This document shows positions 1,863-64,000 of a DNA stretch of 64,000 nucleotides, in pieces; within the stretch, counting starts at the first letter, position 1; each line of letters begins with the position of its first letter. A program made the translations under genes and the position numbers. The stretch is from the UHGV virus genome UHGV-0248979; one strand, 5' to 3'. The DNA is from a virus. Below the pieces are notes generated by a model. That model made no database searches. It saw nothing but the letters and a program-made list of their open reading frames with translations, and had not been told where the DNA came from.

Positions 1863-4379
1863 TTAACCCTTGATTTTCAGATACTGGTTCAGCTGAACTT
1901 CACCATTCAGATACCGCTCGTTAACGCGATCCAAAAACGCGAACCCGAGTTCGTTAACTTCCACGGTTTGGTATTTCACATGCGGATGGAGTTTGACAAA
2001 CGCTTTATCGTAACCGATATACGCGGGGTCGAAAGGAAGCAGGTCTTTATACCGCTCCATAATTTCGTCCAACTGTGTTGTTGAGATACGATAGTCTGGG
2101 TCGTCTTCCACTAGGGTGAGAACACCCCGTAAGTAGTCCCACAGGATTTTATTCAGCGTAGGCGAATAAAGGTGATACAGGTGCGGCAACGGCACAGGAT
2201 TCTGTGGGGGTGGTGTCGGGAACCAGTTAGTCATGTAATTTTCTACACGACTGTCCAGGTCACGGGCTACGTCCCTGAGTGCATACGTGTTCCCCGTTAC
2301 CAGCGTACGCAATGGTATTGTAGGGTCATCGACAGAGTAGGGATAACCATCATCAACAATATTGACACCCACAGTGTTGTCTTCGCGGAACACTACTTCG
2401 TCACGTAATAACAAGGAACCGCCAGCAACGACACGAATAACTTTGTCGTCACGACAATCAAATTGGTTGTTATTTGATAACAACCCGCTCGAGACAAAAC
2501 CGTGTTTCGGAATACGAAGTTCACCGGTGACTCCACGACAACGCACCGCGATGTGGTTTTCATCGGAATCACTCATCCATGCTTTACAGACTACAACGAT
2601 TTCTGGCCAAATGACGTGATAATCGATGCCGTGTACCAGAGGGTGACCGTTTAACCACACTTCAACGGTTTCCATCGGAATCCACAGTGTGCGTTGATTA
2701 CCTTCTTGGTTTCGGGCCAGAATAGGAATACGAATCTCCCCTTCTCTGACTGGCACATCGATTTCGAAATACAGATGGCGATCGTCGTAAATCACCGTAG
2801 GATGACGACGAGTACGGTCCACAGTCCAGGTAATGTTATTACCTTCACGGGTGTAATCCGTCCCTTCTACTGCCTTCAGATATTCGTCCCGTGGAATATC
2901 ATCGATAACTTTACGCAACCACAAGTTAACGTTTTGGCCTTCCTGAATTTCGAAATCATCGGCGTTATCAACGATAGTTACTGCCTCGTCTTTATCACCT
3001 TCAATTGCTTCGATAATTCTGGTGTTAGGGTTGCGTGCTTGGTAAACATCATAACCACGGTTTTGATGTGCTTCTAACAGCAGTCCGTCACCGTCATACT
3101 CGTACACGGTCGAGTTGGTTGCCAGTAACGCAGGTAGGGTAGCGCGGTATCCTCCCTCCGTTAGCGTAAGTCGCTGAGGGGTGTCGGCAGCATAACGACT
3201 TACAGCATTGTAACCGTAGGCATCAGTACACAAATCACGCGTAATATTCTCAAGCTTAGCAGCTGCTAGTCGGTTAAAAGCAGCTTGTTCCAGATTAGCG
3301 GCTTGCCACTCAGTTACGTTTGCATTCGCGCCGATCATCGCGTCGATAATCAGGTCATCTGATAATCGGTATAGATCGTGTATGTGTGCCGAGTTAAACA
3401 ACGGCGCAATATCCAGATAGTCGTCGCGAATAATCAACCTGATGATCAGATCGTCCAGGTCTGTGATTGAGCCACTAAAAACGTTGCGGTATTTTGCAAT
3501 ACGTTCAGTCGGGATTGATAAATCGTTCCATGTTAGCTGACGCAGTGCCTGGTGTCGGTGCCGATGGTAATAACGCCCCCGGCCTTTCCAGTAAAGCTGG
3601 ATTTCCGCATCGTTGTTAAAAATCCAGATGCCATCTTTTTTCGGAATATGGAGCAAGTATTTTCGTTTGCTATCCAGTTTGGACATAAACGTTTGTAAGT
3701 CGCCGCAGCGAAATTCTACAACACGGCGAACACGACCATCGACGCGAATGTCGATATCGTCCCACGTTTTAATATCCGCAGGTTTTGGAGAATCAACCAG
3801 TTCTCCGTTTAACCAGAATTCAACATACCCTTTGTTTTGTTGTTTCAGGTAGTTGAACCGGTCAATAACTTTTTGAACTTGTTCTCGATTCGGCGGTGAA
3901 TAAAACTCAACCGTTGTTGGGTTGATGTACGGTGCGTTCTCACCCCCGCTGTAACCAGGATAAATTCGCAGGTAACAGGGATCGTTGTCCAACCAGGCAT
4001 ACCGATCGGATTGCGGAATAGCCATGTAAACCATTCCTGCGCTGTTACGGTAGAAATAAACGTATTCGGAAGGAATTGTCGTTCCGTTTTCGTTATAGAC
4101 TTGAATCCAGGTGCTAAAACCGTTTACGCAGGTGGAAAGTTTCTTCCAACGGTTTAGGGGAATAGCAAAATTCCCCCAGTTTACGTGAAGCTTATCCACC
4201 GCATAGGCGTGCCACCACGAATTTTCTTTCGGTAAAGCGACCGGAATCCGACCGTGTTTGAAAAAGCCGATCGCCCCGGTCTTGGGTGAAAGACGGAAGG
4301 GTGCGATGTTGAGCACCCCGTCGAGATATGGACGCTGCCACGCTTTTTGGATGGCGTGGGCGACCAGCCAGTTCTCCAT
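1863..4379 (-). CDS. hypothetical protein, 838 aa, possibly structural
   Basis: Long ORF 2 nt from the next gene; no recognisable motif. Confidence 0.6.
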   Translation of the reverse strand: MENWLVAHAIQKAWQRPYLDGVLNIAPFRLSPKTGAIGFFKHGRIPVALPKENSWWHAYAVDKLHVNWGNFAIPLNRWKKLSTCVNGFSTWIQVYNENGTTIPSEYVYFYRNSAGMVYMAIPQSDRYAWLDNDPCYLRIYPGYSGGENAPYINPTTVEFYSPPNREQVQKVIDRFNYLKQQNKGYVEFWLNGELVDSPKPADIKTWDDIDIRVDGRVRRVVEFRCGDLQTFMSKLDSKRKYLLHIPKKDGIWIFNNDAEIQLYWKGRGRYYHRHRHQALRQLTWNDLSIPTERIAKYRNVFSGSITDLDDLIIRLIIRDDYLDIAPLFNSAHIHDLYRLSDDLIIDAMIGANANVTEWQAANLEQAAFNRLAAAKLENITRDLCTDAYGYNAVSRYAADTPQRLTLTEGGYRATLPALLATNSTVYEYDGDGLLLEAHQNRGYDVYQARNPNTRIIEAIEGDKDEAVTIVDNADDFEIQEGQNVNLWLRKVIDDIPRDEYLKAVEGTDYTREGNNITWTVDRTRRHPTVIYDDRHLYFEIDVPVREGEIRIPILARNQEGNQRTLWIPMETVEVWLNGHPLVHGIDYHVIWPEIVVVCKAWMSDSDENHIAVRCRGVTGELRIPKHGFVSSGLLSNNNQFDCRDDKVIRVVAGGSLLLRDEVVFREDNTVGVNIVDDGYPYSVDDPTIPLRTLVTGNTYALRDVARDLDSRVENYMTNWFPTPPPQNPVPLPHLYHLYSPTLNKILWDYLRGVLTLVEDDPDYRISTTQLDEIMERYKDLLPFDPAYIGYDKAFVKLHPHVKYQTVEVNELGFAFLDRVNERYLNGEVQLNQYLKIKG

Positions 4380-22044: not shown

Positions 22045-25000
22045 ATGGCTAAAAAAGGTAAAGATGATTTCGATGAAATCGATCTTGATAACATGGACGA
22101 CTGGGACGATTTTGATGAGCCCCCTCGTCAACAAGACCAATCGCGTAACCCGGTCATGGACACATTTCGTGCTGCCCGTAAGTCGGCGTTGTCGACTATC
22201 TGGCCCGAAAACAAACGTGATCAGGTTATTTTAAAAGGGATGCCCAAACCTGCGGCAGAAGCCTACGAAGGCTATCAAAACGTTAAAGCTGCAGGTCAAG
22301 ACATTCTGGCCCATACGAAAGACGAGATTGAAAAGACGTCTCGCGTCGTTAAGATGCAAGCGAGACAGTTAGGCCCAACACTGAAACGGTATTTACCGGA
22401 ATCCGTAACACGGAAAATCGACAAGTGGGCACGTAACGATCAAATCGACTATGGGAATTACGATCCTAAACAAGCGATGATGGATCGTGAGCTGGACAGC
22501 GTGTTCTCAGGTGCACCGCAAACAGCGGACCAGCAACGTGAAACGCAAGAAGGGATGGTTGAAGACCGCCTGCGTGACACGATTAAGGACATGAAGTCCG
22601 ACGCACTGTTCCAGACAGTAATCGGTATTGCAAAAGACGTCAACTTAACGACTAGCTTAAGTCGTGGCGTGTTGTTGAATGTTCAGCGTAAGCAGTTAGA
22701 GCTACAATATCGAACATTGTTTGCTTTGCAGGATATTGCGAAACTCAAACAAGACGAGTTTGCACGCAATACACCGGCATTAGAAGCTATCGTTAAGAAC
22801 ACAGCACTGCCAGACTACGCGAAGGAAGAGTTTTCTGAAGTTCGTTGGGCTAATGTAAAACGTAAAGCTGCGGAGTGGATGAACCCCTTACGCTACGCAG
22901 ATAATTTCGTTGATCAGATTCGTGAAAATGCGAAGAAGAAAATCTCGAACATCTTTAGTGACGGCCGTGGAATTCTAGAACAAGTTCTAGGGATGGCTCA
23001 GGAAGATGACTTTGGCATGTCGGACAGCTCATCGTTGTCCCCTGACCGTCGTAACACAAACTCGCGTAATAAAGCGGCAGGTTTTGCAGGTGGTTGGTTA
23101 GCAAAACGGTTCTTACAACCCCAGATCGAGCGTCTCCAAAACTGGACTCGTGGCGAGTTAGAGAAAAATCCAGAAGTAATGAAGCGGTTGGAAAAGCTGA
23201 ATTACATCGTTAGTAATAAATCGTCACTTTCTAACTCAGCTATTGCGGGGGAGTCGAGCGGATGGTTAGCTGACTTTTTCCGCCTGTTGAACGACGTGGG
23301 ATTGGTTAACCCGCTACGTCGCGAAACGTTAGCATTAGACGATCGCTCTGCGGAATCTCTTTCTGCGGCGGCGAAATTCGATCGTAAAGCTTACCTTAGT
23401 ATCACCGAAGTTATTCCGACGTTACTGTCCGAGATTAACAAATCTATCCGTCGTGGATATGGGGAACACCACGATCAGGTTTATGACCTGACCACACGCG
23501 GTATGGTGGATCGTAAAGTTATTGGTAATCGTGTTCGTAAAGCGGTTGCTAATGACGATCAGCGTAAACGTTTACAGACTTACATCAACGATACTGTTGA
23601 CTTTATCGATAAAGATAAAACGCTCGATCGGAAAACACGCCAAGCATTAGCGGACTACATCGAATCTCGTGCCTCAGAAGGGAAAGCGTTCGACGTAGGG
23701 TCTTTATTGAAAGACCCGATGCACATGTATCGGTACATGAACGCAAACGCTGTGGAAGCGATTCAGGGTGTTTTAGAAGCCCGTTCTGCGGAACTGGTTG
23801 GTGGACACCATGAACTGAGCAACGCGATTTCAAACAAAATCGCCGCTATCCAGTCAACGATTCGCGCACGTCAGGACACTGTTGATGCTGCGTCTGTGAT
23901 TTACGGCGAGAATGCACTTCGTGATTCCGGTATTTTTAAATACGATGCGAAGAAAGACATTTTCGAGGTCGATAAGGACATTAACGATCCCTATACGTTA
24001 TTTAATGACCTGTCGATGGGTAAGACCCGCTCTGGACGTTCGTTAACCCGTGAGCAAGAGATTCAGCGTAAATTGCAAAACGGTTCTGCGCTGGGTGATT
24101 ACTTGCGTCGGATGGGTGCAGGCGCAGAGCCGAGCTTTGAAGACAAAGAACTGTCCAATGTACGTGGCGGTGGAAAAGGAGGTCGTGGTCGCGGTTTAAG
24201 CGCACGCCAACTCGCTGCGGTACTTTATGGAGAGAAATCCACTAACTTTGTTGAACTATTAAGCAGTCGTCCAGACACGAACGCCGGGTTGGAGCATCAA
24301 TTCGACCGTTTGATTGATGCTGTACGTAAACAGCCCGAATCTAGCACAGTGCAAGATATCCTCAAACACGTTAAGAACATGGATGAGGAAGGTATTCTCC
24401 TAGCCAGTTTAGGCGGTAGTCGTGATGACGGTGACGAATCTGAAAGTTCGAGTGACTCGGGTCGTAAACGTCGTCGTAAACGCAAACGTATTGTGCTAGG
24501 CGAGACAGGCTTGTTACGCCGTTGGGCTGGAGTGCTTTGGGATACCGGTTCAGGTGTAGGGCGTTTTGGTAAGAATCTGTTCCTACGTGGGAAAGATCGT
24601 CTGCAGGCTTTAGGTGGTTTTATCCGTGGGAAATTCTCAGGCGGCTCCTCCGAAGGACCCGGTGTATTTAGCCGACTGAAAGGGTTAGTAACAGGTACTC
24701 TATCGACAGGTTGGAATTCTGCTGTAGCTTTCGGTAAAGGCGTTTTAGGTGTTCGTGATATTTACGATGAACGTGGCAACGTCGTATTACAAGGAAGTCG
24801 TTTAGAAGCTGGGGAATATTACCAGGCTGACCCGAAAACTGAGAAGCTGATTCAACTTAAAACCCTCGACGATATTAAACTGGGACGTGATATTGTCGAT
24901 GAAGCGGGTAATTTAATCTTAGCTGCTGCTGATTTGGCTGCCGCAGGTAAACTGCGCTTCTACAAAGGTGGTAAAGTTCAAGCGCTTTTCCAGTACATTT

Positions 25001-28000
25001 CTGGGAAAGCAGGAACGGCGGTAAACAAAGCTGTGACTTTACCGAAGAAACTTTTAGGCTTCATTTCACCTAAAGCGGCTTCGTTGTTCGAGAAAGCACG
25101 TGAGTGGCTAAATGAGGTTCCAGAGGGCGCAGAGAAAACCCGTTTACAAAGCATGATTTCCCGTGTAACTGGAATGCCAGCACGTTTGTGGAACAATGCA
25201 AAACGCGGGTTTGAGAAGCTCAAAGAGTTGGCTTCTGATAACCCTCTGACACGTTGGTGGCAGAACCGTAAGGAAGGGGGTTCTGGTGGTGGGTTTAGTG
25301 TGTTCTCATGGTCGAACGGCCGTAAAACTAACCACATCTTAATCCGTATCTACAAACTCCTTAACCGGAGATTGCCAGGTGAACCAGAAGATGATACCTG
25401 GACAGAACAGATGGAACGGAATACGGGAGCCAGCTCAGTTAAAGGATTATTCCAACGTGCTAAGGACATACGTGAAGGGTTCCGTGAACATTTTCGGGGG
25501 TTCCGGGATTGGCGTGGTCGGATGCGTGACAGAATGTCCCGTTATCGCAGTGCGGTAGGTGGTCGTCTTTCTCGTTGGGGCGGTGCCGCACGTGGTTGGT
25601 TTGATCGTTTCCGTGGCCGTGCAAGCGATATGGTCGATACTTTCCGAGACCCACGTTACGATATCGGCACACGTTATCGAATGGAGAGTCGTTTAGCAGG
25701 ACGCGATGACGATGTTGCTGAGTTTTATCGTCAACACATCTACGCAAGAGGCAAGGTGTCTAAAACACGTATCATCGATGCGGCAAAAGAAGACTTAGAC
25801 ACCGTAACGGATAGCGCTGGACGTGTGATTAATAAAGGGAAACAGAAAGCCCGTAGCGTTGGGTCAGCTTTACTGGAACGCCTGAACCGAATGGTTAATC
25901 TTCAGGAAATGTCATGGTTTAACACCATGCGTGATTCTGCGGAAAAAGCAGGTGCTTCGGAAGGTTTGTTAAGAACTATGTTCAGTAAGTTCGGCCAACG
26001 CAATAAGCCGCCTGCCAGTGATGAAAAACGCGATTACTTCCAGTTCTTCCGACGCCGTCGGCGTTCTAAGGAAGAGGAAAAGGCTAAGAAAGAGGCTGAG
26101 AAGAAAGGTGGTAAACGTGGGGTAATGGATTTCCTTAAAGGATTGCCGTTGGTAGGACCAATCGTGAGTATTTTAGGCACAGTGGGTTCAATCTTAGGTA
26201 AACTTGCAAAATGGGGAATCTTCAAGCCGGTTGGATTTGCAGGCAAAGCGTTGTGGAACGTTGGTAAGTTTGCCGTGACCCGTTTGGCTGTCCCTGCGGT
26301 TAGTGCTGTCGCGACAGCTGCATCTGCAGTGGTAACTGCGGTTGGCTGGCCGATTATCGGTTTGGTAGCCGCTGGCGCAGGGTTAACGTGGTTTTATTAT
26401 AAAACTAAAGATCGTGTAAATGCCCAGTATCTGGATAACATGCGATTGGCACAGTACGGTTTTAGAGACCACGATGAATGGTCTTCCGACGACGGTGCAA
26501 AAGCACGTTATTTAGAAGACAACTTGAAACCGTATATCTCTTATACAGAGAACGGTCAAGCGCAGCTGCGTGGTTTGTCCGGTGACGATGTGAAGAAACT
26601 GGCCGAAGGGTTTGGTACTAACGTAGAAGACAAAGGCGAAATGCTGGCGTTTAGTGCGTTTATGCTACAACGTTTTGTGCCGATCTATTTACGTTGGATT
26701 ACAGCGTTACGTTCAATGGATAACGATATCGCGTTAGCTGACGTCGGTAATCCGTCGAAGGTATCAAAAGCAGACATGCTTACCATCTTTAACAAAATGA
26801 AGATGACAAAAGATGCACCTGCTTTTAAATCGCTGACAGACCCCCGTAAAGTTAACCAAGGTTGGTTCTCTAAAGCGTGGGATTTCGTGACCTTCACACC
26901 GGCAGAATTTTTGTCAGGCGAAGAAGTTGTTGAGGCACAAGATCGTGTTTTCCGTTCGATCAACATGCGCCGCGATGATAAGCGTAAGAAAACAACTGGA
27001 GCCGGTGCTGTGCCTGAAGGACATAAGGTTGCTTCTGTGGCAGAATCTTCGCAGGTACTCGCGAAGAACGATACCGAACGTAACGAAACCGTTGCTAAAG
27101 CTGAGGGTTGGGAAGACGGTACTGAACAGGTTCAAATTCAAGTTGACTGGAGAGTATTACCTGAGAAGAAAGATTTGGACGCGATGGAATCCGTCCGTTG
27201 GAAATCTTACGGTGTGAAATCTGTTAATGAGACAACACGTACCCTCTTTAGGTTGCTTGAGAAAGAAGTGTTGAAAGACACGGATATCAAAAATTGCATT
27301 TATAAGGGTGATTGGAAGAAAGCAATTTCTGCGATTGCGCCTGATGCAATTGGCGGTCCAAAAGAGGAGCGTTACAAGAACTGGTTCTATAATCGATTCT
27401 TACCAGTATTCATGACCTACGTTTATGGTGTAAAACGTTACGTACCTCATGCCGATCCGTTGGATTTGAAACTCACGGGGGGTTTCCTCTATGAGCTGGC
27501 ACTGATGATGCGTGGTGCTTACAACATGAAAGGGGGTATCCGTCAGTCTGTGTGGGAAATCGCATTTAACCCGTTAGGAGGCGATGCGAATACTGACGCG
27601 GGTTCGGTGAAGGAAGAATTAGCAACGTTGAAAGAGTTGTCTAAAGAACCTGATCTGGCTGTAAGGAATATGCTCAAAGAAACACCGAGCACGCCTAAGC
27701 GTATGACATGGAAATCACCAGCGACAAACTCCAGTGTCCATCAGACGAATGAAGATAGCAAAGAGCGTTATAAGGGAATTAACAGCTACGGCGAAGCTTC
27801 AAACGACGGATACTTACCAAAAGGTGGTCAGTACGGTACGCCAGGTGACTTATCACAAGTTGTTGGCGATATGGGTATAGGGAACTATGCGAAGTATTCC
27901 ACTGGACAATCTGGTATCACCCTCGGTGAGTTACAAGACGGTGATTACAAATCGTTAGTGACTAAATACCCAAGGGAAATGCTTGGCAAACCGATGCAGT

Positions 28001-29208
28001 CAAATACCGAAGCCATTAAGTCATTGATTATTGACGCGGCAAACATGGTGGGTGTTCCGCCATCCGTTGCGATTGCAATGGCACAAGCAGAATCTGGCTT
28101 ACAGTATGGCAACTACCCTGGCGCATCCTCTGGTAGACCGAGAAGTAATAAGATGTCTGCCGCTGGACTGTTCCAATTTACCAATGGTACTTGGAACGGG
28201 GTTATGAAGCAGTACGCCCGAAGATACGGTATCCCACAAACCGACCAGTTCGACCCGTGGGCTAACGCAATCTTAGGTGTTAACTTCATTAGAGACAACA
28301 TCAAGACCGCACAAAAGGATCTGGGTGGAATTGCCCCACCTCCGGCAGTAGCGTACCTATACCACTTCTTAGGTCCAGGTGGTGGTGCTGAGTTCCTTAA
28401 AGCCTGGAAAACCAATCCTAACGGGTCGCCCGACAAAGTGAAGTATATTACACCTGCTGTTCTTAACGGCAACGAAGGTGTTTTCTATATCATGAACGGG
28501 AAGAAACGCGTTAGGATGCGTACGATCGGTGAGGTTGTCGAGGAACTGAACCGCCGTATGGGCGCGGTTGGAACTAACGAGATTGCGGCAAATCCTGCGT
28601 CTGCGAAAAACATGACAAAAGGGTTATCGCCAGTTCCATCGTCTCCTGCAATTGCTGCTGGCGCAGCTAACGATCCGTCTATTTCTGGTCCGGCAGATAA
28701 CCTGCCAGCCGCGAACGAGGCGAATCGTGACTCCGCTTTAGCAGACAAAGGAGCGATGGGCGCTGAAGATATTAAAGCTGCAACTGGGGGTGGTCCAGCT
28801 GTGCCGAGTCCTGGCGGTGACGTCACGCCAAGTGATGCGTCTGTCGTTGTTGAAACGGTGGGTCAAAATGCGCGTGCTGATGGCCTGGGCGAAGAGGAAG
28901 TTGCCAAAGTAAAAGAAGGTGCTAGACAGCAAATGGAGAAAACAGCTCGTCCTGCGCCAACGGTAACGTCTGATGCACAGACTGCGCCAACGGTGAACAG
29001 CGGTGATCCGATTAGCGTACAGCAGCTGGCGGTTGCAAAAGAGTCTGCGGGTTATCTGAGAGAGATTGTTACAATTCTTCGTCAGCGACCACAGGCTATG
29101 CAGTCCTCCCCAGCTAGTTCGGCGGCTTCTGCCCCGGGGTCAGCATCACGTAACATCGCGGTTGAACAACCTGCCCGCCAACTCGACGTTGGTCGTAAAC
29201 GGGCGTAA
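22045..29208 (+). CDS. giant virion-type protein with transmembrane cluster and C-terminal lytic transglycosylase (SLT) domain
   Basis: 2387-aa ORF; hydrophobic segment ...LPLVGPIVSILGTVGSILGKLAKWGIF...AVGWPIIGLVAAGAGLTWFYY; SLT-like ...AMAQAESGLQYGNY...AAGLFQFTNGTWNG... near C-terminus. Confidence 0.7.
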   Translation: MAKKGKDDFDEIDLDNMDDWDDFDEPPRQQDQSRNPVMDTFRAARKSALSTIWPENKRDQVILKGMPKPAAEAYEGYQNVKAAGQDILAHTKDEIEKTSRVVKMQARQLGPTLKRYLPESVTRKIDKWARNDQIDYGNYDPKQAMMDRELDSVFSGAPQTADQQRETQEGMVEDRLRDTIKDMKSDALFQTVIGIAKDVNLTTSLSRGVLLNVQRKQLELQYRTLFALQDIAKLKQDEFARNTPALEAIVKNTALPDYAKEEFSEVRWANVKRKAAEWMNPLRYADNFVDQIRENAKKKISNIFSDGRGILEQVLGMAQEDDFGMSDSSSLSPDRRNTNSRNKAAGFAGGWLAKRFLQPQIERLQNWTRGELEKNPEVMKRLEKLNYIVSNKSSLSNSAIAGESSGWLADFFRLLNDVGLVNPLRRETLALDDRSAESLSAAAKFDRKAYLSITEVIPTLLSEINKSIRRGYGEHHDQVYDLTTRGMVDRKVIGNRVRKAVANDDQRKRLQTYINDTVDFIDKDKTLDRKTRQALADYIESRASEGKAFDVGSLLKDPMHMYRYMNANAVEAIQGVLEARSAELVGGHHELSNAISNKIAAIQSTIRARQDTVDAASVIYGENALRDSGIFKYDAKKDIFEVDKDINDPYTLFNDLSMGKTRSGRSLTREQEIQRKLQNGSALGDYLRRMGAGAEPSFEDKELSNVRGGGKGGRGRGLSARQLAAVLYGEKSTNFVELLSSRPDTNAGLEHQFDRLIDAVRKQPESSTVQDILKHVKNMDEEGILLASLGGSRDDGDESESSSDSGRKRRRKRKRIVLGETGLLRRWAGVLWDTGSGVGRFGKNLFLRGKDRLQALGGFIRGKFSGGSSEGPGVFSRLKGLVTGTLSTGWNSAVAFGKGVLGVRDIYDERGNVVLQGSRLEAGEYYQADPKTEKLIQLKTLDDIKLGRDIVDEAGNLILAAADLAAAGKLRFYKGGKVQALFQYISGKAGTAVNKAVTLPKKLLGFISPKAASLFEKAREWLNEVPEGAEKTRLQSMISRVTGMPARLWNNAKRGFEKLKELASDNPLTRWWQNRKEGGSGGGFSVFSWSNGRKTNHILIRIYKLLNRRLPGEPEDDTWTEQMERNTGASSVKGLFQRAKDIREGFREHFRGFRDWRGRMRDRMSRYRSAVGGRLSRWGGAARGWFDRFRGRASDMVDTFRDPRYDIGTRYRMESRLAGRDDDVAEFYRQHIYARGKVSKTRIIDAAKEDLDTVTDSAGRVINKGKQKARSVGSALLERLNRMVNLQEMSWFNTMRDSAEKAGASEGLLRTMFSKFGQRNKPPASDEKRDYFQFFRRRRRSKEEEKAKKEAEKKGGKRGVMDFLKGLPLVGPIVSILGTVGSILGKLAKWGIFKPVGFAGKALWNVGKFAVTRLAVPAVSAVATAASAVVTAVGWPIIGLVAAGAGLTWFYYKTKDRVNAQYLDNMRLAQYGFRDHDEWSSDDGAKARYLEDNLKPYISYTENGQAQLRGLSGDDVKKLAEGFGTNVEDKGEMLAFSAFMLQRFVPIYLRWITALRSMDNDIALADVGNPSKVSKADMLTIFNKMKMTKDAPAFKSLTDPRKVNQGWFSKAWDFVTFTPAEFLSGEEVVEAQDRVFRSINMRRDDKRKKTTGAGAVPEGHKVASVAESSQVLAKNDTERNETVAKAEGWEDGTEQVQIQVDWRVLPEKKDLDAMESVRWKSYGVKSVNETTRTLFRLLEKEVLKDTDIKNCIYKGDWKKAISAIAPDAIGGPKEERYKNWFYNRFLPVFMTYVYGVKRYVPHADPLDLKLTGGFLYELALMMRGAYNMKGGIRQSVWEIAFNPLGGDANTDAGSVKEELATLKELSKEPDLAVRNMLKETPSTPKRMTWKSPATNSSVHQTNEDSKERYKGINSYGEASNDGYLPKGGQYGTPGDLSQVVGDMGIGNYAKYSTGQSGITLGELQDGDYKSLVTKYPREMLGKPMQSNTEAIKSLIIDAANMVGVPPSVAIAMAQAESGLQYGNYPGASSGRPRSNKMSAAGLFQFTNGTWNGVMKQYARRYGIPQTDQFDPWANAILGVNFIRDNIKTAQKDLGGIAPPPAVAYLYHFLGPGGGAEFLKAWKTNPNGSPDKVKYITPAVLNGNEGVFYIMNGKKRVRMRTIGEVVEELNRRMGAVGTNEIAANPASAKNMTKGLSPVPSSPAIAAGAANDPSISGPADNLPAANEANRDSALADKGAMGAEDIKAATGGGPAVPSPGGDVTPSDASVVVETVGQNARADGLGEEEVAKVKEGARQQMEKTARPAPTVTSDAQTAPTVNSGDPISVQQLAVAKESAGYLREIVTILRQRPQAMQSSPASSAASAPGSASRNIAVEQPARQLDVGRKRA

Positions 29209-34943: not shown

Positions 34944-35978
34944 TTAGACAGCTATGGGAGCTTTAATTGTGTCGTGTGATTGATACCCAACCAATTCGAA
35001 GTCTTCGTATTTGTAATCGAAGATAGAATCAGGTTTACGTTTGATAACCAGTTTAGGTAGCGGGTAAGGTTCGCGAGTAAGTTGAAGTTTTGCCTGCTCC
35101 AGATGGTTAGAGTAAAGATGAACGTCTACACCACTATAAACCAACTCGTCTGGAACCATATTCAACTGCTGTGCAATCATGTGGGTTAGCAACGCGTACG
35201 AAGCGACGTTAAACGGCGCGCCAAGTAGGTAATCGTTGCTCCGCATCATGTAAAAACATGAAAGCTTACGGCGTGGAATACCTTCACGATCTAAAGTTTC
35301 ATGAAGACGTTCTTCATCATCAATATCTTCGTGATTAATAAGCGGTGCGCTCGCAAATTTTTCCGGCTCGTTTATTTCGTACCAATCCAGTCGCTCAAGC
35401 AGTGTCATTTCTGTAGTGTAGAATTGGAAATAGTTGTGGCATGGGTTAAGTGCCATATCGTCCAGGTCACCTACATTCCAGGCACTAACAATAATACGAC
35501 GGGAGTCAGGGTCTTCACGAAGTTGTTGGATAACTTTACTGATCTGGTCATGTGCTTTCTCATAGACCAAATACGTCGTACCATCTTCCTTCATATTCCC
35601 AATATACTTGTAACCCCGCTGCATTAGTTGTTGTGTACGTCTTACGTCATGACACTCCACAACTTTACAGTCACGCCATTCGCGCCACTGTTTACCATAA
35701 ACTGGTCCTAAGTTCCCCTCCTCGTCACTCCATTCGTTCCAAATTTTTACCCCGTTCTCTTGCAGGTACTTCACGTTAGTGTCACCATTTAAGAACCACA
35801 GCAGTTCATGAATGATACTTTTCAGGTGAACCTTTTTCGTAGTAACTAATGGGAAACCTTCTTTTAGGTCGAAACGTAGTTGGCGACCAAATACAGAAAG
35901 TGTCCCTACGCCTGTACGGTCTTTCTTGACAACACCGTTATCTAGAATGTCTTGCATTAACGCTAAATACTGTTTCAT
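34944..35978 (-). CDS. thyA: thymidylate synthase (ThyA) with two insertions
   Basis: [15 protein letters not shown]...[12 protein letters not shown]...GPVYGKQWR...[14 protein letters not shown]...[10 protein letters not shown]...HLYSNH... nearly colinear with E. coli ThyA, including the catalytic Cys. Confidence 0.9.
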
Positions 35979-58080: not shown

Positions 58081-59025
58081 TTATTTTTTGGTTTGGCCCA
58101 GCTTTTCAAGAACCAGTTCACGAATGTACTTTTGAGTACGTTTCTTCGGTGGTAAAGCCATAAGTGTGTCAACAATTTCCTGGCCACCGATAACCTTGCT
58201 GACGAGTTGTTGAACTTGGAAGAGTTCTGCTTCTTCGTCGCTAATTTCGTTAGCTTGGTCTTTCTGACACAATGCTTCTACCAGGTCAGCTACGGATATT
58301 TCATTTTCGTCACCAGGGAAATCCAGGTTTAACGATTCGAAAACATCGCGTTTAACGAGCACAGATTTCAGATCGTCGTAGTTTTCACAGACGGCGACTT
58401 CTGTGCCAGGTACCGCCGGTTCATTGTACGCAGCAAACAAATCTTCCATTACTTTCTGATTGTGCTCTACTTTCAAAGCGTGGAAAGTTTTGGAGGCGCT
58501 GGTTAAAACGTAACCAATTTGCGGCCAGCTGCTCAGAATGAAGCAAACCGTGTTTCCAGTTAGACCGATATTGCCCTGACGTGCGTCAAAAAAGATTTCT
58601 TCGGTGCGAGAAATCTGTCCAAGTTCGAAATAGGTTTCTTTTTTGGCCGCGACGACTTCATACTGATTCTTACCCTGCTCTACAACAACTAACCAGTTAC
58701 CAAGAATTTCGTGTTGGTAGTTTGATACGGAAAGTGACTCGTTGCCCGCGTGCGGCTTAATGTCAATGGACGCCCGACGCATACCCATTGAGAAGTTGAA
58801 CTTAACCCCGTCATGATACGCTGAGGCGTAGTCGATCGGGATAATTTCCGAGACACGTTCGATATCCATAATTGTTTCCTGCGTAACACATGCAGGATCG
58901 GTACCAATTAGATAATTATACAGAAAGTCGGCTGTAACATCTACTGATTTCCGGAAGATTGGGAAATTATGGCTGCGACGGAAAATGTTAGCCAGTGTGT
59001 AAATTACTTCAGATGGAAAAGTCAT
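58081..59025 (-). CDS. hypothetical protein, 314 aa (paralog family, member 2)
   Basis: N-terminus FPSEVIYTLANIFRRSHNFPIFRKSVDVTADFLYNYL. Confidence 0.5.
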   Translation of the reverse strand: MTFPSEVIYTLANIFRRSHNFPIFRKSVDVTADFLYNYLIGTDPACVTQETIMDIERVSEIIPIDYASAYHDGVKFNFSMGMRRASIDIKPHAGNESLSVSNYQHEILGNWLVVVEQGKNQYEVVAAKKETYFELGQISRTEEIFFDARQGNIGLTGNTVCFILSSWPQIGYVLTSASKTFHALKVEHNQKVMEDLFAAYNEPAVPGTEVAVCENYDDLKSVLVKRDVFESLNLDFPGDENEISVADLVEALCQKDQANEISDEEAELFQVQQLVSKVIGGQEIVDTLMALPPKKRTQKYIRELVLEKLGQTKK

Positions 59026-59078
59026 TTTAATAGTCCTCTTTTAGGTTTGTTCAAATCAACTAAGGGTTATGTAAAAAG

Positions 59079-59558
59079 TTAAAACAGTGGTAAGTTACGC
59101 CATTGACCTACCGAGTAAAAAGCTTTTGGATGTTTGCGGATATACGCTTTCGCTTCTTCTGGCAACCAACGATCGCCTACCAGTTTTTGTTGCGCAACAA
59201 TTACCGCCAACAGTAAATACGGGTTTTTCGCACCGGGGAACTTTGCATTGGTTTCTAGCGCAATATCTAACATTGACGACCAGCCCAGTAATTTACGTTG
59301 CGCCGGTAAACGTCCTTCAATAAACATTAGCCAGTCCATGATTTGTCTGGGTTTATACGGACACGTATAATTCGCCCAACTCACCATGGCGAACTTAATA
59401 GCCTTCGCAATAACCCATACAGGAACTGCCACGAAAAGACAGAAAATGGTCAACTGTGAGGCAGGTGCATCGATAAAAGTAACCGCTACAAGAACCATAC
59501 ACAGTTCAAGCACCACAAACCAAAAACGTGTTGGATAACGCCAAATGAATTTTATCAT
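59079..59558 (-). CDS. membrane protein with two predicted TM helices (holin-like candidate)
   Basis: Hydrophobic segments FWFVVLELCMVLVAVTFI and LTIFCLFVAVPVWVIAKAI. Confidence 0.45.
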   Translation of the reverse strand: MIKFIWRYPTRFWFVVLELCMVLVAVTFIDAPASQLTIFCLFVAVPVWVIAKAIKFAMVSWANYTCPYKPRQIMDWLMFIEGRLPAQRKLLGWSSMLDIALETNAKFPGAKNPYLLLAVIVAQQKLVGDRWLPEEAKAYIRKHPKAFYSVGQWRNLPLF

Positions 59559-59590
59559 ATCTCTGTTCCTTTAGGGAATGAAAATAAAAT

Positions 59591-59620
59591 TACCCCTTAC
59601 TCCGTAAAGGGTAAGGGGTA
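59591..59620 (-). terminator. intrinsic terminator hairpin
   Basis: taccccttac ... gtaaggggta; T-run follows on minus strand. Confidence 0.55.
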
Positions 59621-59624
59621 GAGA

Positions 59625-60134
59625 TTAGAAGAACGGCCGATTTGGAATGACAGCGTACTCTAAAATGAACATGTGCTCTGGGGCGTCTTCTTTACGCCAG
59701 ACTTTGTGTGTTAACACAAGTTTTTCCAGAATCGTTAGAAAACTACGCTGGCAGTATGTGTTTTCGCCAAGTAGCAGTTTCTGAAGTTCTACAGTAGCGT
59801 CCATATACGCCTGTTTAAAGACTAGGCTACGGTTATACTGTCCGGTAAAATTCCAAAGCAAGACTTTCCCTTCTTCGGTTTCTTTTACCGTTGGACGTAA
59901 ACCACAAATCCACAGCAAGGCAAGGTTGACGTTCCAGTCAAACTCTAAACCTTCCTCTTCGTCATCACCGAATGCTGTAGGTAAAGCATCGTAAAATTCG
60001 TGTTTCTCTGCGAATTCTTCATCCGATTTAATCTCGTCTTCGATGCTGCTTCGGACGATACCGTAAATGTCTTTCGCGGTTAGTTGTGCGGCTTTTGTAA
60101 TGCCTTTATACCAATCGGTTACAACGATGCTCAA
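59625..60134 (-). CDS. hypothetical protein, 169 aa
   Basis: ORF overlapping the SLT gene by 4 nt. Confidence 0.5.
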   Translation of the reverse strand: MSIVVTDWYKGITKAAQLTAKDIYGIVRSSIEDEIKSDEEFAEKHEFYDALPTAFGDDEEEGLEFDWNVNLALLWICGLRPTVKETEEGKVLLWNFTGQYNRSLVFKQAYMDATVELQKLLLGENTYCQRSFLTILEKLVLTHKVWRKEDAPEHMFILEYAVIPNRPFF

Positions 60135-60856
60135 AGGGTAACTCCTCTATTGATTGGAAAACTCGTGTTTATCGTATCCCAAATTTTACTAACTTCCGCC
60201 AATTGAATCTGACGTGATGTTTTCTTCGCAAACGCAAGCTGACGTGGGGCCGAGCCCACAACAACAGGCACATCGATTTTCGCGCTATAGAACGCGGCAT
60301 CTTTCATAAAGCCTGCCATTTCTCGTTGTGCTGCTCGAGATTTGCTTTTGATTCGCGTGTGAGCGCCACTTTCACCCCAGTGGTAAGCTAACGCAACTTC
60401 AGCCATGGTGGGCTTGCGTTTGAGTCGTTTGGTTAACCCCTTCTCAAGATGTTTAACATACGCGGTAGCCAGCAAAACAGCGTTACGCGGATTATACAAA
60501 TCGGCGTTCTGACTAAGACCTAATTCTTTTCCATAAAGCTTTAGCAGACTACGCTTGGTACTTGGAAGCATCTGTACCAGGCTGTGTGCCCGTGAGCTTT
60601 TGTTGTAAGCCTTGGGATCAAAACGTGATTCGCGATAAATCAGCGTAATCATCAGCTTAGGATCAACGCCTTGCTTTCGTGAGATTTCCACAATTAACGG
60701 ACTGACTTTTTCGAACCGATGTTGGATTTGTGTAAACTCACGCTGATGTTTAGTTTGTGGCGTTGACGTTGACGCCTGTGCGTTAAACGCGAAAAGTGTT
60801 ACCAGTAAAAGAAAGAAGATACGAAACATTTTGTTTCTCCAGTTGGATTTATACAT
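60131..60856 (-). CDS. secreted lytic transglycosylase (SLT domain), candidate endolysin
   Basis: N-terminal hydrophobic signal-like FRIFFLLLVTLFAFNAQA; ...LIYRESRFDPKAYNKSSRAHSLVQMLPST... resembles the SLT catalytic E-S ... GLMQ region. Confidence 0.6.
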   Translation of the reverse strand: MYKSNWRNKMFRIFFLLLVTLFAFNAQASTSTPQTKHQREFTQIQHRFEKVSPLIVEISRKQGVDPKLMITLIYRESRFDPKAYNKSSRAHSLVQMLPSTKRSLLKLYGKELGLSQNADLYNPRNAVLLATAYVKHLEKGLTKRLKRKPTMAEVALAYHWGESGAHTRIKSKSRAAQREMAGFMKDAAFYSAKIDVPVVVGSAPRQLAFAKKTSRQIQLAEVSKIWDTINTSFPINRGVTL

Positions 60857-60929
60857 TTCCGTATTCCGTAAGACGAAATGACGGCGCGGACAGCTAATAC
60901 TCCTTTGTTGTGTGCCCTAATGATAATAT

Positions 60930-61490
60930 CTATTTAAAAGAGTTTGGAATTAATGACTCTGCTTCTCGGTACAGCTTATCGGGTAAGTATAACGTGTAGT
61001 GTTGCCTCCTCGGTTCAAGTTTTTTGTAAAGCCACAAGAAGATTTCTTGCCTTTCCCAGGAATCTAACCACCCATTTGCCATTCCCAGTGGAGGGATAGC
61101 AACGCTGGTATCCAGTTCCTCAACACAATCTGCTAATGCGGTAATGCCCGCAGTAACATAAGAAACCTTGGACTTTAAACGCCAATGTGTTTTCGTGGGG
61201 AGCAAGATGCACTTTTCATCAGGGTAAACGTAAACACTTCCAATCTTGATTTCGTCTTCGCGACACCGCTTACGGTAATCTTGATAAAGGTTGGGGTAGC
61301 GTTCACGGCACGCCAGTGCAATACCGCGACCCATTGCTCCTACACAGTTAATGGTAACGACTTTATAGTCTTCGGGCGCATTAAAAAGATCGTTACCAAT
61401 TTTAGATTCTTTACGTACCGTTAACATAACGAATCGGCCATAGTTGATGTGTAGTATTAAAACGTGTACCGCCGATTGATAGCTCGACAA
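60930..61490 (-). CDS. macro domain protein, OARD1/TARG1-like
   Basis: ...[35 protein letters not shown]... and ...[10 protein letters not shown]...[17 protein letters not shown]... parallel human OARD1 GDLFACP...[22 protein letters not shown] and YLITKKRASHKP...LSMPRIGCGLDRLQWE; start uncertain (TTG at 61490 or ATG at 61427). Confidence 0.6.
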   Translation of the reverse strand: [186 protein letters not shown]

Positions 61491-61514
61491 GTATAGCGAT
61501 ATATGTTTTACCCA

Positions 61515-61883
61515 TTAGCGATTTTTTGTAATCCATTGTTTGACCGCCGTTTCTAAACCTTCGTGTTGTAAGCCCAGGCGTTGCATAGTCAGTGCCAAGT
61601 TGAGCGTGTGGACAACCTGTTCACGGAACTGATGATCGTTCATGCGGTCCCAGACCTTTTCTACTGAAATATTGTGTTTCCACAGCAAATAAGCTTCGCG
61701 ACACGATGCACGACGAACCAAGCTGGGTTTAACAAAAGGTAGCTCGATTTCAGGTAAGTAACCTAAAAGCTTAACTAGCTCTGTTACCTGCGTCTTACCA
61801 AAGTCGTCGCACTGATAACAAATTTGTAGAATGTCAATTTCATTCAACGGTATGCCGTAAATTGATGGGTTCACTGTGAACAT
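61515..61883 (-). CDS. hypothetical protein, 122 aa
   Basis: ORF with GAGGAG SD. Confidence 0.5.
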   Translation of the reverse strand: MFTVNPSIYGIPLNEIDILQICYQCDDFGKTQVTELVKLLGYLPEIELPFVKPSLVRRASCREAYLLWKHNISVEKVWDRMNDHQFREQVVHTLNLALTMQRLGLQHEGLETAVKQWITKNR

Positions 61884-62085
61884 TCGTATTCTCCTCAGGC
61901 TCGAAATATGGTTCGGGTGGCAACGTCCCTAAAGCCCCTTGGATACAAGCCGTCAATGAAGGTTTGCCGAAACAGACCTTACCTATTGTCCCTACATTGG
62001 GATGTTGTAAGAACGCTTTTGCACGTTCGTATTCTTTCCAACAAATACTCGTATCCAAACCACCCACTCCGTACGATTTTAACAT
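61840..62085 (-). CDS. hypothetical small protein, about 81 aa
   Basis: Start moved to internal ATG with AGGAGAG SD, avoiding overlap with the GNAT gene. Confidence 0.35.
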   Translation of the reverse strand: MLKSYGVGGLDTSICWKEYERAKAFLQHPNVGTIGKVCFGKPSLTACIQGALGTLPPEPYFEPEENTNVHSEPINLRHTVE

Positions 62086-62152
62086 AATTAGCTCTCCTGA
62101 CGTAAATTTCTCACACTCATAGTGAGGTACGCCAAGAGAGCTTTTATTGTTT

Positions 62153-62596
62153 TTAGAATGTTTTGCTAAAATCGACCCACTCACGATCGTGTGAGTAAAC
62201 CGCCTGATAGCCGCGTCGGATGAAATACTCTTTTGCTTCTTTACATTTCGCATACATGCCAGTAACAATTTCACCGAAAACTTCATCAGCGGCAATTGCT
62301 TTGAAAATCTCTTTCATTACACCCCGCTGACGATAGTCTGGGAGCACGTATACCGAACGTATCTTAAGTGAACCGTTACGATTCCGATAACTACAGTATC
62401 CTACCGCGACATCATCCTGATACACCAGAACTATGCAGTTACCTTCGATCAGTTGCCGAGCTTTTAATTTCGGTACCGACGTTTTTATTTTTAGTAATGT
62501 AGCCTGGTGGTCCAAGTAACGGTAGTGTAGTTTGAGTAAATCGGCAGCTTGTCGTTCGCCGACTTTAGAAGATGCGTTCAACAAATAAATTTCCAT
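62153..62596 (-). CDS. GNAT-family N-acetyltransferase
   Basis: ...VGYCSYRNRNGSLKIRSVYVLPDYRQRGVMKEIFKAI... fits the GNAT acetyl-CoA-binding motif A; start taken at ATG rather than the track's TTG. Confidence 0.6.
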   Translation of the reverse strand: MEIYLLNASSKVGERQAADLLKLHYRYLDHQATLLKIKTSVPKLKARQLIEGNCIVLVYQDDVAVGYCSYRNRNGSLKIRSVYVLPDYRQRGVMKEIFKAIAADEVFGEIVTGMYAKCKEAKEYFIRRGYQAVYSHDREWVDFSKTF

Positions 62597-62627
62597 TTGC
62601 AAACCTTAGAGACGCAAAAAAGTAAAA

Positions 62628-62756
62628 TTAAAACCAACGCGCGATGACGAATGCCGCTGCGGCTAATATGGCCGTGGTGATTATCAACCCACCCCATGAA
62701 AGTTCCGCATCGTATAATGCGGATATCGCTACATTCGTAGTGTTTATCGAGGTCAT
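62628..62756 (-). CDS. small hydrophobic peptide, 42 aa (below the ORF-track cutoff)
   Basis: Hand-translated MTSINTTNVAISALYDAELSWGGLIITTAILAAAAFVIARWF; AGGAG SD 6 nt upstream. Confidence 0.4.
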   Translation of the reverse strand: MTSINTTNVAISALYDAELSWGGLIITTAILAAAAFVIARWF

Positions 62757-62814
62757 TTTCTGCTCCTAGTAATACCCTCACGCCGGAGGGTATTTTCCGG
62801 ATTATTTGGGTGTT

Positions 62815-62913
62815 TAGTCTTCAAACGCCCATCTGTGTTGTTTAACCAGCAAGTTTAAACCTTTACCGATTAACCACATCGCACCAAGTGTTAACAGAAC
62901 CCCTTCAACCATA
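62815..62913 (-). CDS. small hydrophobic peptide, 32 aa (below the ORF-track cutoff)
   Basis: Hand-translated MVEGVLLTLGAMWLIGKGLNLLVKQHRWAFED; AGGAGAAGGG upstream. Confidence 0.35.
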
Positions 62914-62923
62914 TTCCCTTCTC

Positions 62924-63109
62924 CTAATTCCGCCATTCGCATTCACGTTGACGCCAAATTGAACCCCATGATAGTTTAATCAGATAAGATGAAACTACCC
63001 ATAAAATCATCACCACGCAAAACATGACATAAAGAACCGCTAGAATGGACATGAAACCAAACCCCGCCGCGTCCATAAAACGACGGAACCAATCAGTTTG
63101 CATAAACAA
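62924..63109 (-). CDS. small membrane protein, 61 aa
   Basis: Hydrophobic segment FGFMSILAVLYVMFCVVMILWVVSSYLI; AGGAG 6 nt before the TTG start. Confidence 0.4.
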   Translation of the reverse strand: MFMQTDWFRRFMDAAGFGFMSILAVLYVMFCVVMILWVVSSYLIKLSWGSIWRQRECEWRN

Positions 63110-63995
63110 TTTTTACTCCTTCGTTATACACCGCAGGCAATGTCACTCCTTCCGGTTCGATGACACAGTACGATGCTTCATTAAGTTTAGAATGGACCTC
63201 AGCTTCGTGGGAAACTACCAAGAGTTGTGAAAATTCTCCCGAGTTTGCTAACGTTTTAATAAAGCCGACCAGGTTATTACGGTGTTCCTCGTCCATGCCT
63301 TCCGAAGGCTCATCCAAAAGCAACGGAAACTGATGCAACTTCAGCGCTTTGTACGCAGTCAGTCTGAACATCAGATTAAATATAGCACGCTGTGCCTTAG
63401 ACCCTTTACGCACGTCAGGAACAGGCTCAGGGTGCGTTTTTAGCTGGACAGGAAAAGTATAATCCAAATCACCGTCAGTGAGATCACAGGGCATAACACG
63501 CATGGGGTACGTCCAGACCTGTTCGATATAACGCGTCATTAACTCTGTGATTCTAACGATAGCGTTGTAAAAATACTTTCTAAGTACACCCTTTTCTGGC
63601 GAGAAGGCTTGAATCATCAGTTTGTTATTGAACTGTTGGGCTTGTAAGTCTGTAAGTTCGCGCTCCAAACTGTTGAGCTGATTCAATTCATTTTCCATCT
63701 GACGATAACGTTCGCGTGCAGTTGTAAAAGCATCCAGCTTCCCTTCCCGCACTCGTAAGAGTTCCTCGACGACCGTATTTGTCAACGTAACCTTAACATC
63801 ACTCTCTAACCGTTCGAATAACGCACTGAAATCATCTACAGCACGTTTAACATTCACTAGATAGGTAAGTGTCGTGTTAGCCAGTTCGTGCTCTCTACGA
63901 CGCATTGAGAGCATCTCTGTGGCTTTACCTAACCGTGACTGTTGGAAGGCGATCTTTTGTTGTAAAGCACCATCGACGTTACCAACGGCCGCCAC
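63093..63995 (-). CDS. Rad50/SbcC-like ABC ATPase, C-terminal portion (may extend past the window end)
   Basis: Long coiled-coil-like region, then ...LHQFPLLLDEPSEGMDEEHRNNL...LLVVSHEAEV (Walker B, D-loop, H-loop-like). Confidence 0.45.
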   Translation of the reverse strand: MAAVGNVDGALQQKIAFQQSRLGKATEMLSMRRREHELANTTLTYLVNVKRAVDDFSALFERLESDVKVTLTNTVVEELLRVREGKLDAFTTARERYRQMENELNQLNSLERELTDLQAQQFNNKLMIQAFSPEKGVLRKYFYNAIVRITELMTRYIEQVWTYPMRVMPCDLTDGDLDYTFPVQLKTHPEPVPDVRKGSKAQRAIFNLMFRLTAYKALKLHQFPLLLDEPSEGMDEEHRNNLVGFIKTLANSGEFSQLLVVSHEAEVHSKLNEASYCVIEPEGVTLPAVYNEGVKIVYAN

Positions 63996-64000
63996 GGCAT

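Follow-up and report, generated by a model that had tools for sequence, protein, structure and literature searches.

The window analysed in this study (the whole stretch of 64,000 nucleotides from the virus genome UHGV-0248979) carries on its minus strand a string of genes in the same orientation. It comprises a gene for an SbcC/SMC-like ATPase, several small genes, a GNAT gene, genes for proteins of 81, 122 and 34 amino acids (aa), a gene for a macro domain protein, an SLT gene and, past the latter, conserved phage genes of unknown function. The features of this region are as follows:

63093 onwards, minus strand: SbcC/SMC-like ATPase, upstream of the macro gene
62153..62596, minus strand: GNAT acetyltransferase, a few genes upstream of the macro gene
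61840..62085, minus strand: 81-aa gene, as called on identical contigs, overlapping 61515..61883 by 44 nt
61515..61883, minus strand: 122-aa gene, preceding the 34-aa gene
61411..61515, minus strand: 34-aa gene (MGKTYIAILVELSIGGTRF...), called on related contigs, with a hydrophobic N-terminal stretch
60930..61427, minus strand: AdfM-like gene for a stand-alone DarG-type macrodomain (165 codons plus stop), defined by the ORF, homologue lengths, family matches and a structural model
60131..60829, minus strand: SLT transglycosylase whose N-terminus resembles a signal peptide, immediately downstream of the macro gene

The first-pass annotation, made from the sequence alone, had placed an OARD1/TARG1-like macro domain protein at 60930..61490 (minus strand), and had presented it as a candidate eraser of ADP-ribosylation and an anti-defence factor. 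The mechanical ORF is present as described (186 aa, read from a TTG codon), and both peptide segments which had been aligned by eye with human OARD1 were found within it. The strand and the end at 60930 stand, but the start has to be moved. The TTG at 61490 is merely the first possible start past the upstream stop, whereas the homologues, all of 161-166 aa, align from the ATG at 61427. The same ATG was picked independently by gene callers on metagenome contigs that encode the identical protein (498 nt, 165 aa). For this reason the TTG start was dropped and the gene was defined as 60930..61427; the residue numbers used below are those of the 165-aa protein.

No Shine-Dalgarno sequence was seen ahead of this ATG, and a scan of positions 60000-62700 for sigma-70 promoters and terminators gave no coding-strand signal beyond that expected from shuffled sequence. 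The lack of a sigma-70 signal around the macro gene is to be expected, since the phage uses its own RNA polymerases. There was also no signal of recent horizontal acquisition (the GC content of the gene is 43.8%, that of the window 45.4%, and the composition profile is flat).

The 34-aa ORF that precedes the macro gene has the appearance of a genuine small gene. Its start codon and the stop codon of the 122-aa gene overlap (TAATG), its 3' end overlaps the ATG of the macro gene by 17 nt, and relatives at ~90% and ~75% identity show many synonymous changes over the first ~19 codons while the protein is kept. This small gene may potentially act as a translational-coupling link into the macro gene. 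In phages SPN3US and Asesino its place is taken by a different, longer gene. Further upstream, a mechanical 151-aa ORF (61840..62295, minus strand, TTG start) overlaps the GNAT gene. A GNAT gene also lies upstream of the macro gene in SPN3US (gp075) and Asesino (gp212), at 3057..3545 in L001 and 751..1242 in L002, and in Serratia phage Moabite the stretch matched by tblastn bears annotations for both a macro gene and an acyl-CoA N-acyltransferase gene. The GNAT-macro association may reflect a functional link or mere synteny.

The phage itself bears the hallmarks of PhiKZ-like phages. The window encodes split RNAP beta genes, a tail sheath, the PhiKZ vertex protein (PhiKZ_VTX) and DUF7193, and the RNAP beta piece shows 85.7% protein identity to its counterpart in the SPN3US/SPFM Salmonella phages, which the NCBI taxonomy places in Seoulvirus, Chimalliviridae. 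Megablast of positions 59000-64000 against 50,697 phage records returned nothing, so the phage is an uncatalogued relative; its relatives were found at the protein level, by tblastn. Many metagenome contigs (up to ~226 kb long) encode the identical macro protein, and a 90%-identical copy lies on a 226-kb contig within a Salmonella enterica assembly. A Pfam search of ten larger window ORFs found no chimallin, and neither chimallin nor PicA was found among the window ORFs examined; the genes probably lie outside the 64 kb. A nucleus-forming lifestyle is nevertheless probable, judging from the relatives.

That the protein is a macrodomain was confirmed by several independent searches. The Pfam Macro profile (PF01661) matched residues 46-137 of the 186-aa mechanical ORF with 26.6 bits (E 6.3e-6), above the gathering threshold of 22 bits. 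The best match in the PDB sequence search was the M. tuberculosis DarG macrodomain (5m3i, E 1e-26), followed by T. aquaticus (Taq) DarG (5m31/5m3e, E 2.9e-21) and then the DarT-DarG fusion 7omu; identity to DarG over the domain is 40-44% (T. aquaticus, M. tuberculosis). The resemblance to macrodomains is far beyond chance. The PADLOC DarG model gave E 3.2e-37, and the NCBIfam model antitoxin_DarG (NF048014) gave 125.6 bits (E 2.6e-36), covering only positions 7-155 of the 338 in the profile and falling below the equivalog cut-off of 250 bits, which is set for full-length proteins. In PHROGs, homologues fall under phrog_335, which bears the label “phosphatase”.

The first-pass annotation had proposed a Foldseek comparison as a check, and its outcome agreed with the sequence searches. 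The AlphaFold2 model, built with 27 homologues, is confident (pLDDT 94.2, pTM 0.90), and the modelled fold is the three-layer alpha/beta/alpha macro fold. Against the PDB, Foldseek placed first the Taq DarG complex with ADP-ribose (5m3e, E 2.5e-13, TM 0.79/0.85, rmsd 2.0 Å), then Mtb DarG (5m3i), apo Taq DarG (5m31) and the DarTG fusion. At E<=0.001 there were 186 PDB chains, and the matches listed are macrodomains or designed proteins on that scaffold. TARG1 (4j5q/4j5s, TM 0.70-0.84), eighth and lower, and the alphavirus macrodomains came below all DarG entries.

The likeness to human TARG1/OARD1 (C6orf130; 4J5Q, 4J5R, 4J5S) is thus real as a kinship of folds: both proteins belong to the same macrodomain subclass, and TARG1 has been described as the closest structural neighbour of DarG (PMC5179494). 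The alignment made by eye is weak on its own, however, and the nearest relative is bacterial DarG. Against the human OARD1 sequence, BLASTP gave 19% identity with E 0.005, and phmmer returned no TARG1 among its PDB matches at E<=10. Orthology with OARD1 was rejected on the basis of these BLASTP values and of the lead of DarG in both the PDB sequence search and Foldseek. The catalytic dyad of TARG1 (Lys84/Asp125) is matched with certainty only in part: K79 is the equivalent of Lys84, while the counterpart of Asp125 depends on the alignment. MAFFT puts Asp125 on the invariant Gly119 (and a TARG1 Ser at the position of the DarG-family Asn27), whereas the gapped alignment of the first-pass annotation puts it on D122, a variable position which is D in 73 of 173 DarG-like domains. 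Finally, TARG1 is a eukaryotic protein de-ADP-ribosylase, while the protein studied here is phage-encoded and nearer to DarG.

The residues expected to form the active site and to hold ADP-ribose were examined by alignment. Those of main interest are encoded at the following positions:

61347..61349, minus strand: codon of Asn27, equivalent to Taq DarG N22 and PhiKZ AdfM N23, present in 27 of 27 homologues and 172 of 173 domains
61323..61340, minus strand: first glycine-rich loop, G30-A-M-G33-R-G35, aligning to Taq DarG G25-G30
61191..61196, minus strand: codons of Thr78 (in 173 of 173 DarG-like domains) and Lys79 (in 171 of 173)
61065..61094, minus strand: second loop, grasping ADP-ribose, P112-P-L-G-M-A-N-G-W120-L121, placed by alignments
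61068..61070, minus strand: codon of Trp120, where DarG (Taq G122) and PhiKZ AdfM have Gly

Eleven positions (N27, G30, M32, G33, G35, T78, K79, P112, L114, G115 and G119) are invariant in 27 close and distant homologues, and the same eleven are near-invariant across the 173 DarG-like domains. Lys79, which aligns with Taq DarG K80, TARG1 K84 and PhiKZ AdfM K78, is the predicted catalytic lysine. In Taq DarG, the K80A substitution inactivates the enzyme and N22A lowers its activity (PMC5179494); N23A has the latter effect in PhiKZ AdfM (PMC13309987). W82 aligns with Taq W83, which has been proposed to stack on thymine (PMC5179494). Compared with the ADP-ribose-contacting residues of Taq DarG, the protein differs in A117 (G119), W120 (G122) and A39 (Q34), and keeps G115, N118 and G119 along with N27, T78 and K79. 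The G119E substitution impairs the activity of Taq DarG (PMC5179494), and an Ala in place of this glycine, as in A117, is likewise found in the active PhiKZ AdfM. Trp120 falls within the part of the loop which in Taq DarG (residues 117-122) closes on ADP-ribose (PMC5179494). A Trp at this position is present in 28 of the 173 domains, and 26 of these 28 are stand-alone proteins of 151-174 aa.

DarG of T. aquaticus and M. tuberculosis, the antitoxin of the DarTG2 toxin-antitoxin system (5M31, 5M3E, 5M3I; PMC5179494), is therefore the best match of the protein in both sequence and structure, and the alignments give the two the same ADP-ribose-binding loops and catalytic lysine. The two proteins also differ. 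DarG combines the macrodomain with a C-terminal DarT-binding domain, while the phage protein consists of the macrodomain alone; and DarG is a cognate antitoxin, while the phage protein would act against a toxin of the host. In a PADLOC search of eight neighbouring ORFs, none matched DarT or another toxin of a toxin-antitoxin or defence system (the SbcC-like neighbour gave only generic SMC-type ATPase matches), and for this reason the macrodomain is regarded as an orphan. The surrounding genes are those of a phage. It should be borne in mind that against Taq DarT the macrodomain suffices as an antitoxin by itself (PMC5179494).

Phage proteins of this kind have already been described. Morgan et al. 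(Cell Rep 2026; PMC13309987) named the family AdfM (anti-DarT factor macro) and aligned as its members PhiKZ gp104, PhiPA3 gp108, Goslar gp83 and Asesino gp217. According to these authors, the DarG2-like macrodomain PhiKZ gp104 is taken up into the phage nucleus, strips the ADP-ribose added by DarT2 off a DNA oligonucleotide, and relieves DarT2 toxicity. AdfM is required by PhiKZ and PhiPA3 on hosts carrying DarTG2, and in its absence DNA packaging fails; on hosts without DarTG2, deletion of the PhiKZ gene has no phenotype. GFP fusions of the PhiKZ, PhiPA3 and Asesino proteins enter the phage nucleus in a PicA-dependent manner. The evidence comprises enzymology and genetics for PhiKZ, genetics for PhiPA3 and localisation only for Asesino (PMC13309987). 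Since the AdfM family has been published, the anti-DarT idea is not novel.

The protein encoded in the window is 64% identical to SPN3US gp070 and 61% identical to Asesino gp217 (tblastn over 96% of the length, E 5e-59; 60% in the MAFFT alignment), and the genes flanking the macro gene are the same in both phages, in the order SbcC/SMC-like gene, GNAT gene, small genes, macro gene and SLT gene. Identity to PhiKZ gp104 is 36% (E 8e-29). Like the AdfM proteins, it is a stand-alone, DarG2-like domain of ~160 aa in which the active-site Asn and Lys (PhiKZ N23 and K78) are kept. It differs from PhiKZ AdfM in that its lineage has NGWL (with Trp120) where PhiKZ AdfM and DarG have NGGL, in its genome neighbourhood, and in its separate placement in a crude tree. 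These data point to an AdfM orthologue of the SPN3US/Asesino type.

Whether the two types of AdfM descend from one capture of a DarG-like domain or from two was considered on several lines of evidence. By tblastn, the protein was found in 260 records of the phage collection, mostly jumbo phages of Pseudomonas, Erwinia, Escherichia, Salmonella and Serratia, and an exhaustive HMMER search yielded 5,152 representative clusters at E<=0.001. Outside its own clade, it comes closest to DarG-like proteins 330-390 aa in length, with up to 49% identity and scores of 200-235 bits on NF048014. With many of these proteins PhiKZ gp104 scores higher (up to 116 bits) than with the window protein, which reaches 91 bits and ranks 83rd of 198. 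In a bootstrapped NJ tree (a crude one, based on 149 columns, Kimura distances and taxa picked by similarity to the window protein, and hence to be read as a hint), the two meet only in a clade of 149 of the 173 taxa, and a clade of at most 25 taxa that unites them appears in just one of 200 replicates. The PhiKZ gene (context examined: PhiKZ 98517-117002) follows head-protein genes, and its vicinity contains neither an SMC nor an SLT gene. More distant Trp-loop relatives, which share 40-47% identity and come from contigs of 11.5-225 kb, do lie between SMC-like and SLT genes, and because they keep this position, the macro gene must have been resident in the phage lineage for a long time. Taken together, these observations suggest, rather than prove, that the Trp-loop lineage arose by a capture separate from that of PhiKZ gp104. 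A stronger form of this proposal, in which DarG-like macrodomains were captured independently a second time and have since been inherited by a large enterobacterial jumbo-phage clade at a fixed SbcC...macro...SLT locus, with the loop Trp as the marker of the lineage, seems to us doubtful. If it were true, the substrate range or the partner might differ from those of PhiKZ AdfM; the differences might lie in another DarT2 motif context, in another ADP-ribosylated nucleic acid, or in a loop adapted to nuclear import or to the evasion of an inhibitor. Judged by similarity ranking, the crude tree and synteny, PhiKZ gp104 and the window lineage are not sisters, so that function is being transferred here across two possibly independent captures of DarG-like domains.

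Stand-alone DarG-like macrodomains with 38-42% identity to PhiKZ gp104 were also observed in non-jumbo E. coli phages of 54-79 kb (e.g. Escherichia phages Paul, vB_EcoP_DE5, FS2B and MN03). This indicates that the strategy of carrying an orphan DarG-like domain is not limited to nucleus-forming phages.

By analogy with the PhiKZ protein, the most likely function is the enzymatic reversal of DarT2-mediated ADP-ribosylation of thymidines on single-stranded phage DNA, and to this reading as a whole, including the placement as an AdfM orthologue, we assign a probability of roughly 0.78. In the proposed mechanism, DarT2 of the host would ADP-ribosylate thymidines in single-stranded phage DNA. The macrodomain pocket would then take up the ADP-ribose, with N27 and the two glycine-rich loops holding and positioning the substrate, and Lys79 would attack C1'' of the ribose, so that the thymidine-ribose bond is cleaved. 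The unmodified DNA thus regained would allow replication and, above all, genome packaging to go on. Since the DarT-binding C-terminal half of DarG is absent, neutralisation is expected to be enzymatic and not to proceed by sequestration of the toxin. Our analysis establishes the gene, its fold and family, the retention of the catalytic residues, the orthology and synteny with Asesino gp217 and SPN3US gp070, and the orphan state of the macrodomain. The substrate, the role against DarTG2 and import into a phage nucleus are all extrapolated from the experiments with PhiKZ, PhiPA3 and Asesino.

The role as an eraser of ADP-ribose put forward in the first-pass annotation is well supported by analogy, given the DarG-type fold, the invariant catalytic Asn and Lys, and the reversal of DarT2 marks by PhiKZ AdfM (PMC13309987). 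The same applies to the anti-DarT role in anti-defence, in view of the protection of PhiKZ and PhiPA3 from DarTG2 by the orthologous family (PMC13309987). The processing of NAD-derived signals, also suggested there, found no support in our analysis.

Other phage factors are known to neutralise a DarTG system. AdfN (PMC11825919), an orphan NADAR-domain anti-DarT1 factor of T-even phages, represents the same orphan antitoxin-like strategy, although its fold is unrelated and it acts on the guanine modifications made by DarT1. AdfA and AdfB are, like AdfN and AdfM, factors of this kind; AdfB of phage ICP1 probably binds DarT rather than hydrolysing its product (PMC11481870).

Several other functions have to be weighed against the reversal of DarT2 marks. 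The protein might be a DarG-fold hydrolase with a shifted specificity, in which case the Trp120 subfamily would reverse another ADP-ribosylation of nucleic acids (RNA, another base or another sequence context may be named as targets) and counter a defence other than DarTG2. The near confinement of the ligand-loop Trp to stand-alone proteins (26/28) speaks for this, as does the distance of the lineage from the tested PhiKZ type. The four Trp contexts checked beyond the close clade are also on jumbo-phage contigs, save for one contig of 2.4 kb that is too short to judge. Macrodomains which reverse RNA ADP-ribosylation exist (PMC11833690). We nevertheless consider this explanation unlikely: all contact and catalytic positions of Taq DarG except G122 were counted as conserved, including the one that corresponds to W83 (W82), and Asesino gp217 was placed together with PhiKZ AdfM by the authors who described the family (PMC13309987). 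Even less probable, in our opinion, is a general enzyme acting on ADP-ribose metabolites or on ADP-ribosylated proteins, which would serve NAD/ADP-ribose housekeeping or remove protein marks and not repair DNA. Homologues in GenBank and PHROGs do carry labels such as “Appr-1-p processing protein”, “phosphatase” and “O-acetyl-ADP-ribose deacetylase”, but these are generic transfers within the Macro family and not the outcome of tests. The structural neighbour TARG1 does act on proteins, and structures of ADP-ribose-1''-phosphate phosphatases were matched weakly in the PDB sequence search (E 0.018-0.05); the DarG macrodomains are ~24 orders of magnitude ahead of the latter, however, and also lead the fold search. 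A housekeeping role would moreover agree poorly with the lack of a phenotype of the PhiKZ AdfM deletion on hosts free of DarTG2 (PMC13309987).

Macrodomains bind ADP-ribose derivatives, and phages use other folds to sponge signals of this type. The protein might on this basis be a non-catalytic binder or sponge of immune signals derived from ADP-ribose (e.g. the cyclic ADP-ribose isomers of Thoeris) or a reader domain, a possibility which the first-pass annotation had also raised. The invariance of Lys79 and Asn27 throughout the family would be unexpected in a pure binder, and the closest characterised relatives are all hydrolases, which makes this the most improbable of the functions discussed. 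The reversal of DarT2 marks on phage DNA remains the reading that we prefer.

The annotation made from the letters of the sequence had correctly singled out this gene as one of anti-defence. The result extends AdfM counter-defence to an unsequenced relative of Salmonella and Erwinia jumbo phages, and it may be of practical significance, since an SPN3US-type phage considered for therapy would, if it carries the macro gene, be predicted to be insensitive to DarTG2 of the host. The scientific gain is modest, because both the mechanism and the family have already been published.

The base composition of the window was also analysed with respect to DarT2 motifs, using a first-order Markov model. 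No depletion that would indicate motif avoidance was found for TNTC (O/E 1.03) or TTTC (O/E 1.07), a neutral outcome. In the same model TCT was over-represented (O/E 1.10, z 4.5) and both TTT and TCTC were mildly under-represented; these skews probably result from codon or compositional bias.

Two further genes of the window deserve mention. An SLT lytic transglycosylase domain, located around residues 1994-2092, is part of a 2,387-aa ORF (22045..29208, plus strand), which probably encodes a giant virion- or tail-associated protein which degrades the cell wall. The thymidylate synthase gene (34944..35978, minus strand) encodes 344 aa, and since the 266-position Pfam profile is matched end to end, the ~78 extra residues would be accommodated as one or more insertions.
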